Positions 44,936 through 55,539 of a stretch of DNA of 64,000 bases are shown here, piece after piece. The stretch lies in sequence record MK977694.1; one strand, given 5' to 3'. The notes below the pieces were generated by a model. That model did not search any database, was not told the origin of the DNA, and was given only the letters and a program-made list of their open reading frames with translations. Position numbers and translations under genes: made by a program. The stretch's first letter is position 1; every line of letters starts with the position of its first letter. This DNA comes from Escherichia phage vB_EcoM-Sa45lw.

Positions 44936-44943
44936 TATAAATA
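44936..44943 (+). promoter_or_regulatory. Late promoter (TATAAATA) for gene 34
   Basis: Exact TATAAATA 35 bp upstream of the ATG. Confidence 0.65.
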
Positions 44944-44977: not shown

Positions 44978-47900
44978 ATGGCCGAGATTAAAAGAAAGTT
45001 CAGAGCAGAAGACGGTCTGGACGCAGGTGGTGATAAAATAATCAACGTAGCTTTAGCTGATCGTGCCGTAGGAACTGACGGTGTAAACGTTGATTACTTA
45101 ATTCAAGAAAACACAGTTCAACAATATGATCCAACTCGTGGATATTTAAAAGATTTTGTAATCATTTATGATAACCGCTTTTGGGCTGCTATAAATGATA
45201 TTCCAAAACCAGCAGGAGCTTTTAATAGCGTACGATGGAGAGCGTTACGCACTGATGCAAACTGGACAACTGTTTCGTCAGGACCTTATCAATTAAAATC
45301 AGGCGAATCGATTTCAGTTAACACCGCAGCGGGTAATGACATTACATTTACTTTGCCATCTTCTCCAATTGATGGTGATACTATCGTTCTCCAAGATATT
45401 GGAGGAAAACCTGGAGTTAACCAGGTTTTAATTACAGCTCCGGTACAAAGCATTGTAAACTTTAGAGGTCAACAAGTACGCTCAGTACTAATGACTCATC
45501 CAAAATCACAGATAGTTTTAATTTTTAGTAATCGTCTGTGGCAAATGTATGTTGCTGATTATAGCAGAGAAGCTGTAGTTGTAACGCCTGCAAGTCTCTA
45601 TCAGGCGCAATCAAACGATTTTATCGTACGTAGATTTACTTCTGCTTCAGCAATTAATATTAAACTTCCAAGATTTGCTAATCATGGCGATATTATTAAT
45701 TTCGTTGATTTGGATAAATTAAATCCACTTTATCACACAATTGTTACCACATACGATGAAACGACTTCAGTACAAGAAGTTGGAACTCATTCCATTGAAG
45801 GTCGTACATCTATTGATGGTTTCTTGATGTTTGATGATAATGAGAAATTGTGGAGATTGTTTGACGGGGATAGTAAAGCACGTTTACGCATTATAACGAC
45901 TAATTCTAATATTCGTCCAAATGAAGAAGTCATGGTATTTGGCGCAAATAATGGAACAACCCAAACAATTGAACTTCAGCTTCCAACTGATATTTCTATC
46001 GGTGATACTGTTAAGATTTCCATGAATTATATGAGAAAAGGACAAACAGTTAAAATCAAAGCTGCCGGTGAAGATAAAATTGCTTCTTCAGTTCAATTGC
46101 TGCAATTTCCAAAACGTTCAGAATACCCACCTGAAACTAAATGGGTGACTGTTCAAGAATTAGTTTTTAATGGCGAAACCAATTATGTTCCAGTTTTACA
46201 GCTTGCTTATATCGAAGATTCCGATGGAAAATATTGGGTTGTACAGCAAAACGTTCCAACTGTAGAAAGAGTAGACTCTTTAAATAATTCTACTAGAGCA
46301 AGATTAGGCGTAATTGCTTTAGCTACACAGGCTCAAGCTAATGCTGATCTAGAAAATTCTCCACAAAAAGAACTGGCAATTACTCCAGAAACGTTAGCTA
46401 ATCGTACTGCTACAGAAACTCGTAGAGGTATTGCAAGAATAGCAACAACTGCGCAAGTAAACCAGGATACCACATTCTCTTTTGCAGATGACCTTATCAT
46501 CACTCCTAAAAAGTTGAATGAAAGAACTGCTACAGAAACTCGTAGGGGTGTCGCTGAAATTGCTACGCAGCAAGAAACAAACACAGGAACAGATGATACA
46601 ACCATCATTACTCCTAAAAAGCTTCAAGCTCGTCAAGGTTCTGAATCATTATCTGGTATTGTAACTTTTGTATCTACTGCAGGTGCTACTCCGGCTTCTA
46701 GCCGTGAATTAAATGGTACAAATGTTTATAATAAAAACACTAATAACTTAGTTGTTTCACCTAAAGCCTTGGATCAGTATAAAGCTACTCCAACGCAACA
46801 AGGTGCAGTAATTTTAGCAGTTGAAAGTGAAGTAATTGCTGGACAAAGCCAAGAAGGATGGGCAAATGCGGTTGTAACGCCAGAAACGTTACATAAAAAG
46901 ACATCAACTGATGGAAGAATTGGTTTAATTGAAATTGCTACGCAAAGTGAAGTTAATACAGGAACTGATTATACTCGTGCAGTCACTCCTAAAACTTTAA
47001 ATGACCGTAGAGCAACTGAAAGTTTAAGTGGTATAGCTGAAATTGCTACACAAGTTGAATTCGACGCAGGCGTCGACGATACTCGTATCTCTACACCATT
47101 AAAAATTAAAACTAGATTTAATAGTACTGATCGTACTTCTGTTGTTGCTCTATCTGGATTAGTTGAATCAGGAACTCTCTGGGACCATTATACCCTTAAT
47201 ATTCTTGAAGCAAATGAGACACAACGTGGTACACTTCGTGTGGCTACACAAGTTGAAGCTGCTGCCGGAAAATTAGATAATGTTTTAATAACTCCTAAAA
47301 AGCTTTTAGGTACTAAATCTACCGAATCGCAAGAAGGTGTTATTAAAGTTGCAACTCAGTCTGAAACTGTGGCTGGAACGTCAGCAAACACTGCTGTATC
47401 TCCAAAAAATTTAAAATGGATTGTACAGAGTGAACCTACCTGGGCAGCTACTACTGCGATAAGAGGTTTTGTTAAAACTTCATCTGGTTCAATTACATTT
47501 GTCGGTAATGATACAGTCGGTTCTACCCAAGATTTAGAACTGTATGAGAAAAATAGCTATGCAGTATCACCATATGAATTAAACCGTGTATTAGCAAATT
47601 ATTTACCGTTAAAAGCAAAAGCTGCTGATAGTAATTTATTGGATGGTCTAGATTCATCTCAGTTCATTCGTAGGGATATTGCACAGACGGTTAATGGTTC
47701 ACTAACCTTAACCCAACAAACGAATCTGAGTGCCCCTCTTGTATCATCTAGTACTGCTACGTTCGGTGGATCAGTTTCAGCAAATAGTACATTAACTATT
47801 TCTAATACTGGAACAGCAACTCGATTGATTTTTGAGAAAGGACCTCAAACTGGAACAAACCCAGCCCAAACGATGACTGTTAGAGTGTGGGGAAATCAAT

Positions 47901-48847
47901 TTAGTGGGGAATTAGATACAACACGTTCTACCGTATTTGAAGTTAGTGATGAAACATCTAGTCATTTTTATTCTCAGCGCAATAAAGCCGGAAATATAAC
48001 ATTTAATATCAACGGTACAGTAACACCGATAAATGTTAATGCTTCAGGAACATTGAATGCAAATGGCGTAGCAACATTTGGTAATTCAGTCACTGCAACT
48101 GGTGAAATTATTTCTCGAAGCGCAAATGCTTTCCGTGCTATTAACGGAAATTACGGTTTCATTGTTCGCAATGATGGATCAGTAACGAATTTTATGCTTA
48201 CTGCATCGGGTGATCAGACTGGTGGATTTAATGGATTACGCCCATTAGCTATTAATAATGCATCTGGCCAAGTAACGATTGGTGAAAGCTTAATCATTGC
48301 CAAAGGTGCTACTATAAATTCAGGTGGTTTGACTGTTAACTCGAGAATTCGTTCTCAAGGTACTAAAACATCTGACTTATATACACGTGCGCCAACATCT
48401 GATACTGTAGGATTCTGGTCAATTGATATTAACGATTCAGCTACTTATAACCAGTTCCCAGGTTATTTTAAAATGGTTGAAAAAACTAATGAAGTGACTG
48501 GTCTTCCATATTTAGAACGTGGCGAAGAAGTTAAATCTCCTGGTACACTGACTCAGTTTGGTAACACACTTGATTCGCTTTACCAAGATTGGATTACTTA
48601 TCCAACAACGCCAGAAGCGCGTACCACTCGCTGGACACGTACATGGCAGAAAACCAAAAATTCTTGGTCAAGTTTTGTTCAGGTATTTGATGGAGGTAAC
48701 CCTCCTCAACCGTCTGATATCGGTGCTTTACCATCTGATAATGCTACAATGGGTAATCTTACTATTCGTGATTTCTTACGAATTGGTAATGTTCGCATTA
48801 TTCCTGACCCAGTGAATAAAACTGTTAAATTTGAATGGGTTGAATAA
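44978..48847 (+). CDS. 34: Long tail fiber proximal subunit gp34
   Basis: 1289 aa (T4 gp34 length); internal repeated motif TATETRRG-IA-IAT. Confidence 0.95.
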   Translation: MAEIKRKFRAEDGLDAGGDKIINVALADRAVGTDGVNVDYLIQENTVQQYDPTRGYLKDFVIIYDNRFWAAINDIPKPAGAFNSVRWRALRTDANWTTVSSGPYQLKSGESISVNTAAGNDITFTLPSSPIDGDTIVLQDIGGKPGVNQVLITAPVQSIVNFRGQQVRSVLMTHPKSQIVLIFSNRLWQMYVADYSREAVVVTPASLYQAQSNDFIVRRFTSASAINIKLPRFANHGDIINFVDLDKLNPLYHTIVTTYDETTSVQEVGTHSIEGRTSIDGFLMFDDNEKLWRLFDGDSKARLRIITTNSNIRPNEEVMVFGANNGTTQTIELQLPTDISIGDTVKISMNYMRKGQTVKIKAAGEDKIASSVQLLQFPKRSEYPPETKWVTVQELVFNGETNYVPVLQLAYIEDSDGKYWVVQQNVPTVERVDSLNNSTRARLGVIALATQAQANADLENSPQKELAITPETLANRTATETRRGIARIATTAQVNQDTTFSFADDLIITPKKLNERTATETRRGVAEIATQQETNTGTDDTTIITPKKLQARQGSESLSGIVTFVSTAGATPASSRELNGTNVYNKNTNNLVVSPKALDQYKATPTQQGAVILAVESEVIAGQSQEGWANAVVTPETLHKKTSTDGRIGLIEIATQSEVNTGTDYTRAVTPKTLNDRRATESLSGIAEIATQVEFDAGVDDTRISTPLKIKTRFNSTDRTSVVALSGLVESGTLWDHYTLNILEANETQRGTLRVATQVEAAAGKLDNVLITPKKLLGTKSTESQEGVIKVATQSETVAGTSANTAVSPKNLKWIVQSEPTWAATTAIRGFVKTSSGSITFVGNDTVGSTQDLELYEKNSYAVSPYELNRVLANYLPLKAKAADSNLLDGLDSSQFIRRDIAQTVNGSLTLTQQTNLSAPLVSSSTATFGGSVSANSTLTISNTGTATRLIFEKGPQTGTNPAQTMTVRVWGNQFSGELDTTRSTVFEVSDETSSHFYSQRNKAGNITFNINGTVTPINVNASGTLNANGVATFGNSVTATGEIISRSANAFRAINGNYGFIVRNDGSVTNFMLTASGDQTGGFNGLRPLAINNASGQVTIGESLIIAKGATINSGGLTVNSRIRSQGTKTSDLYTRAPTSDTVGFWSIDINDSATYNQFPGYFKMVEKTNEVTGLPYLERGEEVKSPGTLTQFGNTLDSLYQDWITYPTTPEARTTRWTRTWQKTKNSWSSFVQVFDGGNPPQPSDIGALPSDNATMGNLTIRDFLRIGNVRIIPDPVNKTVKFEWVE

Positions 48848-50033: not shown

Positions 50034-50690
50034 ATGGCTGATTTAAAAGTAGGTTCAACAACTGGAGGCTCTGTCATTTGGCATCAAGGAAATTTTCCAT
50101 TGAATCCAGCCGGTGACGATGTACTCTATAAATCATTTAAAATATATTCAGAATATAATAAACCACAAGCTGCTGATAACGATTTCGTTTCTAAAGCTAA
50201 TGGTGGTACATATTTAAATAAAGTAATTTTTAATAAAGGAATGACTGTTCCTGGTGCTGGGTCAGGTGACAACGGTATTTTTGCCGGTCCTGGTGATAAT
50301 GCTACATATGATACTACAAATATGGATATTGTTTCATGGTATGGTATCGGCTTTAAATCATCACAAGGGGCAGCAGGTAGAACTGTAGTAATTAACACAC
50401 GAAACGGAGATATTAGCTCAAAGGGTGTAATTGAAGCATCACAAATACGCGCAACTTCGTTATCACCAGTAAATAATTATGACCTTACGAGAAAAGATTA
50501 TGTTGATGGGGCAATAAATATTGTTACAACAAATGCAAACTCTAGAGTATTACGCTCTGGAGACACTATGACAGGAAATTTAACTGCGCCAAACCTTTTT
50601 TCACAGAATCCTGCATCTCAACCCTCGCATGTTCCGCGATTTGACCAAATCGTAATTAAGGATTCTGTTCAAGATTTCGGCTATTATTAA
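50034..50690 (+). CDS. 36: Long tail fiber distal connector gp36
   Basis: 218 aa, position. Confidence 0.88.
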   Translation: MADLKVGSTTGGSVIWHQGNFPLNPAGDDVLYKSFKIYSEYNKPQAADNDFVSKANGGTYLNKVIFNKGMTVPGAGSGDNGIFAGPGDNATYDTTNMDIVSWYGIGFKSSQGAAGRTVVINTRNGDISSKGVIEASQIRATSLSPVNNYDLTRKDYVDGAINIVTTNANSRVLRSGDTMTGNLTAPNLFSQNPASQPSHVPRFDQIVIKDSVQDFGYY

Positions 50691-50698
50691 GAGGACTT

Positions 50699-53600
50699 AT
50701 GGCTACTTTAAAACAAATACAATTTAAAAGAAGCAAAACGGCAGGTCAACGTCCAGCTGCTTCAGTATTAGCCGAAGGTGAATTGGCTATAAACTTAAAA
50801 GACCGTTTACTTTTTACTAAAGATGACCAGGGAAATATTATTGATTTAGGTTTTGCTAAAGGCGGTAGTATTGACGGGAATGTTATTCATAAAGGCAATT
50901 ATAACCAAACTGGCGATTATACTTTAAACGGTACATTCACCCAGACTGGTAATTTTAATTTAACTGGTATTGCTCGAGTAACTCGTGATATTATTGCTGC
51001 TGGGCAGATTATGACTGAAGGCGGAGAACTTATTACAAAAAGTTCAGGTACATCACATGTTCGTTTTCATGATTCAGCTGACCGTGAACGTGGAATCATT
51101 TTTTCTCCTGCTAATGATGGATTAACTACACAAGTAATTAACATCAGAGTTCAAGATTACAAAGCTGGTTCAGAAAGCACTTTCGCTTTTAATGGAAATG
51201 GTTTGTTTTCTTCACCAGAAGTTTTTGGGTGGAAATCTGTATCAACTCCGGTAATTTATACCAATAAAGTTATCACCAATAAAAAAGTTAAAGATGATTA
51301 TGACATCTATTCGATGGCAGATAATGTTCCATTATCTGAAAGCACTACTGCTATTAATCATCTTCGTGTTATGCGTAATGCAGTTGGTTCTGGTATTTTC
51401 CATGAAGTTAAAGATAATGATGGAATAACATGGTATAGTGGAGATGGATTAGACGCTTATCTTTGGTCATTTACTTGGAGCGGCGGAATTAAATCAAGTC
51501 ACTCAATTTCCATCGGTTTAACACCCGGACCTAAGGATTACTCAATATTAGGACCGTCTAGTATCGCTTTAGGAGATAATGATACTGGATTTAAATGGCA
51601 TCAAGACGGATATTATTTCAGTGTTAATAATGGCACAAAAACGTTTTTATTTAGCCCTAGCGAAACAACTAGCCTAAGAAAATTTGTAGCTGGATATTCT
51701 ACTAATGGAACCGATTTAACTACTCCTCCGACTGAAAACTATGCTCTTGCTACTGTCGTGACATATCATGACAATAACGCGTTTGGAGATGGTCAGACTC
51801 TTTTGGGGTATTATCAAGGCGGTAGATATCACCATTACTTTCGCGGAAGAGGAACAACTAATATTAATACTGCTGGAGGGTTATTAGTTACTCCTGGTAA
51901 TATTGATGTTATTGGCGGTTCTGTTAATATCGATGGTAGAAATAATGCTTCTACAGCTCTGTTTAAAGGTAACACAACAGGTAGTAGTTCTGTGGATAAC
52001 ATGACAATTTCTGTGTGGGGTAATACATTTACTAATCCTAGCGAAGGTAATCGCAAAAATGTCATGGAAATTTCCGATGCAACTAGCTGGATGAGCTATA
52101 TTCAAAGACTTACTACTGGTGAAGTAGAAATGAACGTTAACGGTTCATTTGAATCATCTGGTGTTACTGCTGGAAATAGAGGAGTTCACACAACAGGCGA
52201 AATTTCATCTGGAGCAGTGAATGCTCTTCGCATTTGGAATGCAGATTATGGAGCCATTTTTAGACGTTCAGAAGGTAGTCTTCATATTATTCCAACTGCT
52301 TACGGTGAAGGCAAAAATGGTGATATCGGTCCACTTCGTCCATTTAGTATTGCTTTGGATACTGGTAAGGTTGTTATTCCAGATTTAGAATCAAGTTATA
52401 ACACGTTTGCTGCAAATGGCTACATTAAATTTGCTGGTCACGGCGCGGGTGCAGGTGGTTATGATATTCAGTATTCACAAGCTGCTCCTATTTTCCAAGA
52501 AATCGATGATGCTGCTGTAAGCAAATATTATCCTATTGTTAAACAGAAGTTTTTAAACGGTAAAGCTGTCTGGTCTTTAGGTACTGAAATTAATTCAGGT
52601 ACATTTGTTTTACATCATCTAAAAGAAGATGGTTCACAAGGCCATACATCAAGATTTAATGCTGATGGTACAGTTAATTTCCCCGATAATGTTCAAGTCG
52701 GCGGCGGTGAAGCTACTATTGCTCGTAATGGTAATATCTTCTCTGATATTTGGAAAACATTTACTTCTGCCGGAGATACTACAAATATTCGCGATGCGAT
52801 AGCTACTCGTGTTGCCAAAGAAGGCGATACGATGACTGGCAAATTAATCGTTAGAAGAGGCTCTGACGCTATTAACATTGCTGCCGATGAAAATGATTCT
52901 TGCTATTTACTTGGAACATCGGGTGGAGCGAATTCATGGTACATCGGTAAAGGAGGAGCAGATGACACTGCTTCATTTTATAATTTCAAAACTACCGCAG
53001 GAATTACTCTTAATAGTGTTGGTGATATTGATTTTAACGTCAAAAATCAAGCTACTGCAGCTTCATTAAATTTTTATCGTTTATATTTAAATGGAAGACA
53101 ATGGACAGCTACACAAGGTCACGGCTATAATAATCAATGGCAAACAGAAGCCCCATTCTTCGTTGACTTTGGTGAATCTGTTCCGAAAGATAGTTATATG
53201 CCTATAATTAAAGGAAGAAGCCAAATCATTAACGAAGGATATGCCACAAAGGCAGATTTTGGTATTATTCGATTGGGTGGAAATGCTACTTGGGGAAATG
53301 CAGTAATTCGTGTTGGTTCTGCGGAAAGCGGAGATAGCAGCCATCCTAATGCAATATTTGTGTTTCAGGCTAATGGTGATTTTAAAGCTCCGGCTGGCCT
53401 TCGTGCTGGTGTTAACTTGGGCGTCGGCACAATTCCAGTATGGGGTGGAGCATCTATCGCCATCGGGGATGATGATACCGGTTTAGTTCATGGCGGCGAT
53501 GGTCGAATTAATATGTATGCTAACGCGCAGCATATAGCATCATGGGGCACGATGTATCAATCTCATCCAGGCCTTTGGGATTCAAATGGAGCTTTTTGGA

Positions 53601-54025
53601 CAGAAGTTGGCAAAGCAATTATTTCTCATGGCCATTTAGTTCAGGCGAATGACAGCTATTCAACGTATGTCCGCGATGTTTATGTCCGCTCTGATATTCG
53701 TGTTAAAAAGGACCTAGTTAAATTTGAAAATGCTTCTGAGAAGCTTTCAAAAATTAATGGTTACACTTATATGCAGAAGCGAGGCCTAGATGAAGAAGGT
53801 AATCAGAAATGGGAACCAAACGCTGGGTTAATTGCTCAAGAAGTTCAAGCTATTTTACCTGAATTGGTTGAAGGCGATCAGGATAGTGAAGCTTTACTTC
53901 GTTTGAACTATAACGGTGTAATTGGTTTAAATACAGCTGCAATCAATGAGCATACTGCAGAAATTGCAGAACTTAAGTCAGAGATTGAAGAGCTTAAAAA
54001 ATTAGTTAAATCATTGTTAAAATAA
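50699..54025 (+). CDS. 37: Long tail fiber distal subunit gp37 with C-terminal intramolecular chaperone domain
   Basis: 1108 aa; conserved N-terminus [36 protein letters not shown]; C-terminal ~110 aa resemble the S74-type self-cleaving chaperone module. Confidence 0.9.
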
Positions 54026-54030
54026 AATGA

Positions 54031-54044
54031 GGGGCTTCGGCCCC
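54031..54044 (+). other. GC hairpin between genes 37 and 38
   Basis: GGGGC-ttcg-GCCCC without strong T-run. Confidence 0.4.
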
Positions 54045-54056
54045 TTGGAGGTTTAT

Positions 54057-54851
54057 ATGGCAGTTGAAGGACCGTGGGTAGGATGGTCTGCGAGGGTACA
54101 AACTGGAGACCCTTGGATGGGTGGTGCCGCGCAGAGATTGAGAATGGGAATTCCGTTTTGGATGAGTAATATGATAGGTCGATCTGTTGAAGTAATTCAC
54201 ACCCTTGGAGCGGACCATAACTTTAATGGTCAATGGTTCCGAGATAGATGTTTTGAGGCAGGTAGTGCACCTATAGTGTTTAATATTACCGGAAATTTGG
54301 TATCATATTCTAGAGACGTTCCTTTATTCTTCATGTACGGAGATACACCTAATGAATATGTTCAGTTGAATATTGGTGGCGGCGTCCATATGTGGGGTAG
54401 AGGTGGACAAGGTGGATGGACTCATTCCGGCGGAGATGGTAATGGTCAACAAGGTGGTCATTGTATTCAAAATGACATCGGTGGACGATTAAGAATTAAT
54501 AACGGTGGAGTAATTTGTGGTGGAGGTGGAGGTGGAGGTGGTATCGCTTATCGTCCTCACTCTGGTGCAAATTGGCAAGATATTGGTGGTGGTGGAGGAA
54601 GACCATTTGGCCCAGGAGGAGGCGGAGGTTATTCCGGCGGCGCAGCTTCTTATGATGGCCCAGGAGGTGGTTATAATTATGGTAATGCTCACTCTGGCCA
54701 GGGTGGTGATGCTGGCGCAAATGGACAAAATGCCTGGTATGATGGCGGTAAAGTTCTAAAAGTTGGAGCTGGTGGCGCTGCCGGATATGCTGTTATAGGA
54801 TCAGCTCCAACATGGCAAAATGTTGGAGTAATATATGGTCCAAGGGTATAA
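54057..54851 (+). CDS. 38: T2-type gp38 receptor-binding adhesin
   Basis: 264 aa from [10 protein letters not shown] with GGAGG SD; conserved [22 protein letters not shown] block then glycine-rich motifs (GGGGGGGG, GGGGG). Confidence 0.85.
54519..54542 (+). repeat. (GGTGGA)4 hexanucleotide repeat inside gp38
   Basis: Read directly from sequence. Confidence 0.9.
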
Positions 54852-54882: not shown

Positions 54883-55539
54883 ATGGCAGCACCTAGAATA
54901 TCATTTTCGCCCTCTGATATTCTATTTGGTGTTCTAGATCGCTTGTTCAAAGATAACGCTACCGGGAAAGTTCTTGCTTCCCGGGTAGCTGTCGTAATTC
55001 TTTTGTTTATGATGGCGATTGTTTGGTATAGGGGAGATAGTTTCTTTGAGTACTATAAGCAATCAAAGTATGAAACATACAGTGAAATTATTGAAAAGGA
55101 AAGAAATGCACGCTTTGAATCTGTCGCCCTGGAACAACTCCAGATAGTTCACATATCATCTGAGGCAGACTTTAGTGCGGTGTATTCTTTCCGCCCTAAA
55201 AACTTAAACTATTTTGTTGATATTATAGCATATGAAGGAAAATTACCTTCAACAATAAGTGAAAAATCACTTGGAGGATATCCTGTTGATAAAACTATGG
55301 ATGAATATGCAGTTCATTTAAATGGACGTCATTATTATTCCAACTCAAAATTTGCTTTTTTACCAACTAAAAAGCCTACTCCCGAAATAAACTACATGTA
55401 CAGTTGTCCATATTTTAATTTGGATAATATCTATGCTGGAACAATAACCATGTACTGGTATAGAAATGATCATATAAGTAATGACCGCCTTGAATCAATA
55501 TGTGCCCAGGCGGCCAGAATATTAGGAAGGGCTAAATAA
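54883..55539 (+). CDS. t: Holin T
   Basis: 218 aa; MAAPRISFSPSDILFGVLDRLFKDNATGK matches T4 T. Confidence 0.95.
   Translation: MAAPRISFSPSDILFGVLDRLFKDNATGKVLASRVAVVILLFMMAIVWYRGDSFFEYYKQSKYETYSEIIEKERNARFESVALEQLQIVHISSEADFSAVYSFRPKNLNYFVDIIAYEGKLPSTISEKSLGGYPVDKTMDEYAVHLNGRHYYSNSKFAFLPTKKPTPEINYMYSCPYFNLDNIYAGTITMYWYRNDHISNDRLESICAQAARILGRAK

Follow-up and report, generated by a model that had tools for sequence, protein, structure and literature searches.

The long tail fibre locus of Escherichia phage vB_EcoM-Sa45lw (hereafter Sa45lw; sequence record MK977694.1) was analysed within a window of 64,000 nucleotides (nt), which is the whole stretch of DNA considered here and from whose first letter all positions are counted. 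At positions 50699-54851 two adjacent genes, g37 and g38, encode the distal fibre subunit and the protein at its tip. The following features of the two genes and their products (gp37 and gp38) form the basis of the analysis:

50699-54025, plus strand: g37, precursor of the distal long-tail-fibre subunit, 1108 amino acids (aa); an open reading frame (ORF) deposited as QDF15272.1
52043-52351, plus strand: gp37 aa 449-551, domain which also occurs in the C-terminal trimerisation domain of gp34 (PF21446, E 5e-8)
53441-53689, plus strand: gp37 aa 915-997, predicted carrier of gp38 at the fibre tip, with DVYVR as its last residues; aligns to the S16 tip (6f45_A)
53690-54022, plus strand: gp37 aa 998-1108, S74 intramolecular chaperone and putative self-cleaving domain with a coiled-coil-like tail (PF13884; 6f45_A, E 3.5e-35)
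54057-54851, plus strand: g38, tail-fibre tip adhesin, 264 aa (PF21721 and PF05268; PDB 9v85 and 6f45_D)
54057-54176, plus strand: gp38 aa 1-40, N-terminal attachment domain with W7, W20 and W35 (PF21721; invariant columns)
54408-54452, plus strand: gp38 variable segment 1, aa 118-132, poorly conserved across the OmpA, Tsx, FadL and OmpC classes
54519-54542, plus strand: gp38 eight-glycine motif G155-G162, matching the long central polyglycine-II helix 151-GGGGGGGG-158 of S16 gp38
54543-54584, plus strand: gp38 variable segment 2, aa 163-176, which holds R-x-H-S-G-A, the in silico OmpA-contact stretch of AV119 and FL08
54630-54695, plus strand: gp38 variable segment 3, aa 192-213 (approximate bounds), low conservation
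54708-54770, plus strand: gp38 variable segment 4, aa 218-238, low conservation

The product of g38 matches two adhesin families which together cover nearly the whole protein. Its residues 1-40 align with PF21721 (Gp38_N) on profile positions 1-40 of 40 (E 1.4e-19, 70.2 bits vs a cutoff of 25) and residues 45-264 with PF05268 (GP38) on positions 1-218 of 218 (E 1.3e-68, 231.6 bits vs a cutoff of 25). Moreover, gp38 is homologous to the solved receptor-binding domain of PP01 gp38 (9v85, E 4e-73) and to S16 gp38 in its complex with the gp37 tip (6f45_D, E 1e-48). Judged by these matches gp38 is a T2-type tip adhesin over its full length, and the T2-type architecture which the original prediction had read from the sequence was thereby confirmed.

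For the comparison of adhesins an alignment of nine gp38 proteins from four receptor classes (OmpA, Tsx, FadL and OmpC) was established. Of the adhesins proposed beforehand for the assignment of a receptor class, T2 and T6 were compared, while K3, Ox2 and M1 were left out and RB32, whose record labels its gp38 'similar to Ox2, T6, M1', served as OmpA reference. The conservation profile of the nine adhesins agrees with the expected layout of a conserved N-terminal block followed by glycine motifs between variable segments. W7, W20 and W35 are invariant, and further conserved blocks are GRGG at aa 114-117, the eight glycines at 155-162, GGGGGRPFG at 177-185 and the C-terminal residues 243-264. 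Glycine accounts for 27% of the whole protein and for 37% of aa 106-264, with runs at 107-109, 155-162, 177-181, 187-191 and 203-205. In S16 gp38 the three tryptophans are prongs which insert into pockets of the gp37 trimer (PMC6851490), and the arrangement of Gly-rich motifs and hypervariable segments is the gp38 layout defined by Trojet et al. (PMC3157838). In the solved T2-type gp38 proteins of PP01 and S16 the C-terminal part is a polyglycine-II sandwich with protruding loops, and the homology to 9v85 and 6f45_D suggests that gp38 of Sa45lw would adopt the same fold.

The codons of G155-G162 constitute a tandem repeat of 24 bases, which had been described as (GGTGGA)4 at 54519-54542. The repeat is real and encodes glycines, but it is composed of three perfect GGTGGA units (54519-54536) and a final GGTGGT (54537-54542) rather than four identical units; Tandem Repeats Finder (TRF) reports 3.8 copies. 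Because different codons are used for these eight glycines in AV119 and FL08, the DNA repeat is incidental, and a role as functional DNA element was rejected, as it represents one of several synonymous ways to code for this motif.

With 1108 aa, gp37 exceeds the T4 protein, whose length, put at about 1026 aa beforehand, proved to be 1026 aa. Its C-terminus had been interpreted as a chaperone and autoproteolysis domain of tailspike type, and the peptide quoted for it starts at S998, exactly where PF13884 (Peptidase_S74, 'chaperone of endosialidase') begins to match significantly (aa 998-1057, E 1.2e-12, 48.4 bits vs a cutoff of 22). The match opens at profile position 1, which is the Ser of an S-D-x-R-x-K motif (S998). 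Over aa 915-1108 gp37 aligns with the tip and chaperone of S16 gp37 (6f45_A, E 2.6e-44), and the last 129 aa show a weak match to the autoprocessing domain of MYRF (7dc3, E 0.014). In the S16 alignment DVYVR and S998-D-I-R-V-K1003-K occupy the same columns as the cleavage site of S16, and the Ser at the start of the S74 domain, followed by a Lys five residues on (S998/K1003), is aligned with S-D-R-R-I-K in S16 and S-D-I-R-L-K in T2. Consistent with established knowledge of endosialidase and S16, S998 would be the nucleophile and K1003 the base of a catalytic dyad. From the register with the S16 self-cleavage site we predict a cut between R997 and S998, which would yield a mature fibre of 997 aa with R997 as C-terminus and a released fragment of 111 aa. 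The motif DVY(V/I)R together with SD.R.K is common to gp37 of T2, T6, RB32 and PP01; T4 gp37 lacks the S74 domain. For S16 it has been reported that the last 113 residues of gp37 are autocleaved at DLNVS/SDRRIKK, by which the docking surface for gp38 is exposed (PMC7917993), and in T2 and T6 gp37 is cleaved and then capped by gp38 (PMC3157838, citing Drexler et al. 1986).

Further upstream, gp37 aa 418-561 (51950-52381) show homology to gp34, the proximal subunit, in its trimerisation domain (PDB 4uxe, 5nxf and 9x3r, E ~1e-12). The protein is a mosaic. Compared with wV7, identity drops to 54-84% in aa 101-200, 251-300 and 451-500 between nearly identical flanks, and compared with AV119, FL08 and PP01, aa 701-950 are 32-74% identical, while tip and chaperone reach 72-100% per bin of 50 aa. 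This pattern points to recombination inside the fibre shaft.

The receptor class was deduced from the specificity domain, defined as gp38 aa 106-264. The identical positions shared with Sa45lw and the receptors of the respective phages, where noted, are:

KIT03: 159/159
RB32: 157/159 (N172K, Y228H), receptor OmpA plus lipopolysaccharide (LPS)
wV7: 157/159
AV119: 150/159, receptor OmpA
FL08: 149/159, receptor OmpA
T6: 94/165, receptor Tsx
PP01: 85/162, receptor OmpC
T2: 77/163, receptor FadL/OmpF

The four hypervariable segments are thus common to gp38 of Sa45lw and of the OmpA-dependent phages RB32, AV119 and FL08, whereas identity to T6, PP01 and T2 is only 47-57%. RB32 depends on OmpA and shows sensitivity to mutations of the LPS core (waaG and waaP); RB5 chimeras which carry only a ~400-bp segment of RB32 with the four variable segments gain the OmpA/LPS specificity (PMC3157838). 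These chimeras place specificity in the very block between the glycine runs for which a receptor-determining role had been proposed. AV119 and FL08 do not plate on an ompA deletion mutant of MG1655 (PMC12032242) and needed OmpA alone among 12 receptor mutants tested. Both were assigned to the 'type 1' adhesins, which accepted all eight tested OmpA loop variants, and according to a published phylogeny the receptor is the same among similar gp38 proteins. The residues predicted to contact OmpA are largely retained: R166, H168-A171, R182, D218 and R263 of gp38 correspond to R165, H167-A170, R181, D217 and R262 of AV119. An exception is V166 of AV119, which is replaced by Pro in gp38 (P167), as in RB32. 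Because the specificity domain is nearly identical to those of OmpA-dependent RB32, AV119 and FL08 and shows low identity to the other classes, we assigned gp38 to the OmpA class and consider OmpA most likely the primary receptor, with recognition possibly influenced by the LPS core.

Several points weigh against this assignment. At two loop positions gp38 differs from RB32 (N172K and Y228H), and P167V, the difference to AV119 and FL08, lies inside the predicted OmpA-contact stretch, whose contact residues derive from in silico models only (PMC12032242). Mutations of Ox2 in the same regions are reported to change receptor specificity (PMC12892980), and near-identity is for this reason no guarantee of the same receptor. 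In the literature searched, no published receptor was found for either KIT03 or Sa45lw.

Other readings of the receptor were weighed against recognition of OmpA. That the adhesin binds OmpC, like those of the O157-infecting phage PP01 or the Salmonella phage S16, appears quite improbable. It is true that the closest relatives KIT03, wV7 and typing phage 7 were isolated on E. coli O157:H7, that among the solved structures the OmpC-binding gp38 of PP01 scores best and that the Sa45lw laboratory works in one paper on the assumption that T4-like phages use LPS/OmpC. The match to PP01, however, rests on the conserved N-terminal and Gly-rich parts, whereas all four variable segments differ, and the 85/162 identities in the specificity domain contrast with the 149-157 of 159 shared with RB32, AV119 and FL08. 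A PP01-like OmpC class was rejected on account of this similarity outside the variable segments, and the published phylogeny, in which similar gp38 proteins share a receptor, argues in the same direction. The involvement of two receptors, or mainly of LPS, is rather unlikely; OmpA would then be secondary or conditional on the LPS core, or another outer-membrane protein would be used on Salmonella. Lysis of Salmonella besides E. coli by KIT03 and Sa45lw would fit such a reading, as would the additional sensitivity of RB32 to waaG and waaP mutations. OmpA is conserved among enterobacteria, however, and might by itself account for the Salmonella hosts. AV119 and FL08, moreover, depend on OmpA alone among the receptor mutants mentioned above, and LPS effects may be indirect via the protein composition of the outer membrane (Trojet et al., PMC3157838). 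An extension of the OmpA reading, to which we likewise give only a small chance, is that the adhesin variant of KIT03 and Sa45lw has a shifted or widened specificity. These two phages carry N172 and Y228 in place of K and H in RB32 and wV7, and P167 in place of V in AV119 and FL08. If true, the altered specificity might extend to Salmonella OmpA besides every loop variant of E. coli OmpA, or to a second receptor, and could explain the lysis of both Shiga toxin-producing E. coli (STEC) and Salmonella.

With OmpA retained as the most likely receptor, two further readings concern the maturation of the fibre and the nature of gp38. An S74-like domain which stays uncleaved on the fibre, for instance as a structural cap, with gp38 acting transiently, is conceivable insofar as cleavage of Sa45lw gp37 is deduced from the letters of the gene. 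Yet the Ser-x4-Lys motif is intact at position 1 of the PF13884 profile and in register with the S16 site, the docking surface for gp38 is created in S16 by removal of the domain, and processing is documented for T2 and T6, so that we consider a permanently uncleaved domain very improbable. The chance that g38 encodes an assembly chaperone of T4 type, which acts outside the virion, is close to negligible. In older annotations of relatives such as wV7 and HY03 the product of g38 is labelled 'distal long tail fiber assembly catalyst', but gp38 fits adhesin Pfam families and solved adhesin structures over its full length, and no similarity to T4 gp38 (183 aa) was detected by BLASTP (best E 0.85 with 6/20 identities). 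Instead of the full-length alignment with T4 gp38 that a chaperone would show, only this chance-level hit was obtained; the chaperone reading was rejected by this comparison and the original prediction, which had excluded it, was upheld. The RefSeq note of T4 likewise states that gp38 of the T2 subfamily is unrelated to T4 gp38 and is an adhesin.

Taken together, we hold with high confidence that g37 and g38 form the distal long-tail-fibre receptor-recognition module of a Tequatrovirus, which would operate in the following way. The protein encoded by g37 would be made as a precursor of 1108 aa, whose last 111 residues, the S74-type chaperone, would nucleate trimerisation and folding of the beta-helical fibre. 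The chaperone would then remove itself by cutting between R997 and S998, with Ser998 as nucleophile and Lys1003 as base, and thereby expose a flat trimeric tip ending in DVYVR. One gp38 of 264 aa is expected to dock on this tip (three gp37 to one gp38) via its small helical N-terminal domain with W7, W20 and W35 as prongs. Its C-terminal half would form the polyglycine-II 'sandwich' from the conserved Gly-rich motifs, from which the four hypervariable segments would project as loops and bind the host receptor. Since these loops belong to the class of RB32, AV119 and FL08, the primary receptor would most likely be OmpA, with sensitivity to the LPS core.

Comparison with known systems enabled a more precise placement of the module. 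On the DNA level positions 50699-54851 (4153 nt) share 98.8% identity with KIT03; for the UFV phages, wV7 and O157 typing phage 7 the value is 94-95%. In the upstream backbone (26000-50000) many Tequatrovirus genomes reach 96-98% identity. The gp38 protein of KIT03 (gp37/gp38: BBG28764/BBG28765) is 99.6% identical, Q26L being the sole difference. RB32, which together with RB33 represents the OmpA plus LPS adhesins (Trojet et al. 2011), has the same four variable segments (157/159) but differs in its T6-type N-terminal attachment domain (84/107 identical) and its T6-type gp37 tip and chaperone. The junction between the T6-type attachment domain and the shared specificity domain is located near aa 46-47 of RB32 gp38. 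RB32 gp38 is a natural domain swap by which the gp37-gp38 interface is kept matched, in line with the 'lock-and-key' principle described in the literature, by which C-terminal subtypes of gp37 are paired with N-terminal subtypes of gp38. The gp38 proteins of AV119 and FL08 (Lutz et al. 2025) share the N-terminal type and 149-150/159 residues of the specificity domain; they differ by nine to ten substitutions, including P167V in variable segment 2, and by a deletion of one residue at V110, and their gp37 is only 38-74% identical to that of Sa45lw in aa 701-950.

Among the solved structures, the gp37(3)-gp38 complex of S16 (PDB 6F45; Dunne et al. 2018) is alike in architecture, with a trimeric tip, a self-cleaving chaperone and, as gp38, a monomer which has three Trp prongs and folds as a polyglycine-II sandwich. 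It differs in the gp38 loops, in the binding of Salmonella OmpC and in the residue before the cleavage site, which is Ser in S16 vs Arg in Sa45lw. The closest solved structure is PP01 gp38 (PDB 9V85), which recognises OmpC of E. coli O157. It has the same N-terminal type (98/105), and from aa 951 on, tip and chaperone of PP01 gp37 reach 72-100% identity in each bin of 50 aa; all four variable segments (85/162) and the receptor differ. S16 gp37 is much shorter than gp37 of Sa45lw. T2 follows the same logic with a processed gp37 capped by gp38 and a shared DVYIR/SDIRLK, but its gp37 comprises 1341 aa and its gp38, which is 46% identical overall, has another N-terminal subtype and binds FadL/OmpF. 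With endosialidase-type chaperones gp37 shares the Peptidase_S74 profile; the domain sits on a T-even fibre and not on a tailspike, and sequence similarity to the non-T-even members is low.

The start of g38 and the spacer between the two genes were inspected separately, with the following features:

54030-54045 (extended stem 54028-54047), plus strand: AGGGGC-UUCG-GCCCCU tetraloop hairpin in the g37-g38 spacer, identified by its fold and conserved in nine other T-even phages
54047-54051, plus strand: GGAGG ribosome-binding site of g38, 5 nt ahead of the ATG, conserved

The longest ORF of g38 begins at an in-frame ATG at 54027-54029 and would encode 274 aa. The start at 54057, which gives the predicted product of 264 aa, is correct, because it is preceded by the GGAGG ribosome-binding site and its ATG is invariant across the ten T-even phages aligned. 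The start at 54027, an unconserved ATG beside the hairpin, was rejected. The longer start is probably an annotation artefact, because its ATG is replaced by TAA in AV119, FL08 and PP01. It is used in EOC8912514.1, an NCBI protein of 274 aa labelled Shigella sonnei. The hairpin fills the 31-nt gap between g37 and g38 and lies 5' of the Shine-Dalgarno sequence of g38, which it partly overlaps. KIT03, wV7, AV119, FL08, PP01 and T2 have kept the hairpin, RB32 and T6 carry the variant GGGGCTTTGCCCC, and even T4, with its unrelated g38, has it. Its fold is not significant against shuffled sequences (z-score -0.83). We take it to resemble the classical intercistronic C(UUCG)G hairpin of T4.

The module is embedded in a block of tail fibre genes, which is bounded downstream by the holin gene:

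44978-48847, plus strand: g34, 1289 aa
48856-49971, plus strand: g35, 371 aa
50003-50010, plus strand: TATAAATA late-promoter consensus before g36, likely start of a g36-g37-g38 late transcript, the sequence match being weak alone
50034-50690, plus strand: g36, distal hinge connector of the long tail fibre, 218 aa (PF03903 Phage_T4_gp36, E 1.8e-28; position as in KIT03)
54883-55539, plus strand: gene t, holin, 218 aa (PF11031, E 5.9e-117), downstream boundary of the module

The order g34-g35-g36-g37-g38-t is the same in KIT03, T2, T6 and PP01, and in these phages as well as in RB32 g38 is placed directly between g37 and t. The placement of TATAAATA suggests that g36, g37 and g38 are co-transcribed; its position ahead of g36 presumably mirrors that in T4. 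The motif is found 12 times in the window vs 9.4 times expected, which is not above chance. It also occurs just upstream of g34 (44936-44943), and no site lies directly before g37 or g38. Neither tRNA genes nor Rfam families at gathering thresholds were found across the whole window.

By exact match of the sequences both proteins are those deposited for Sa45lw, and they bear appropriate names there, gp37 as 'large distal long tail fiber subunit' (QDF15272.1) and gp38 as 'Receptor-recognizing protein gp38', and the module is already known and mechanistically understood from T2, S16 and PP01. An identical gp38 and a nearly identical gp37 are also deposited under isolate assemblies of Salmonella enterica, Shigella sonnei and E. 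coli. The two proteins are located there on contigs of 166-169 kb, and whole genomes of T4-like phages thus sit in 'bacterial' assemblies from pathogen surveillance, owing either to contamination or to a carrier state.

The module, its domains and its mechanism represent textbook biology of the T-even phages since the 1980s, now with crystal structures, so that the discovery value is small. The sole increment is the prediction of OmpA as receptor, whereas a later paper generically assumed LPS/OmpC for Sa45lw. Its practical value is that of a testable prediction for a biocontrol phage, which bears on the design of phage cocktails and on the resistance mutations to be expected.

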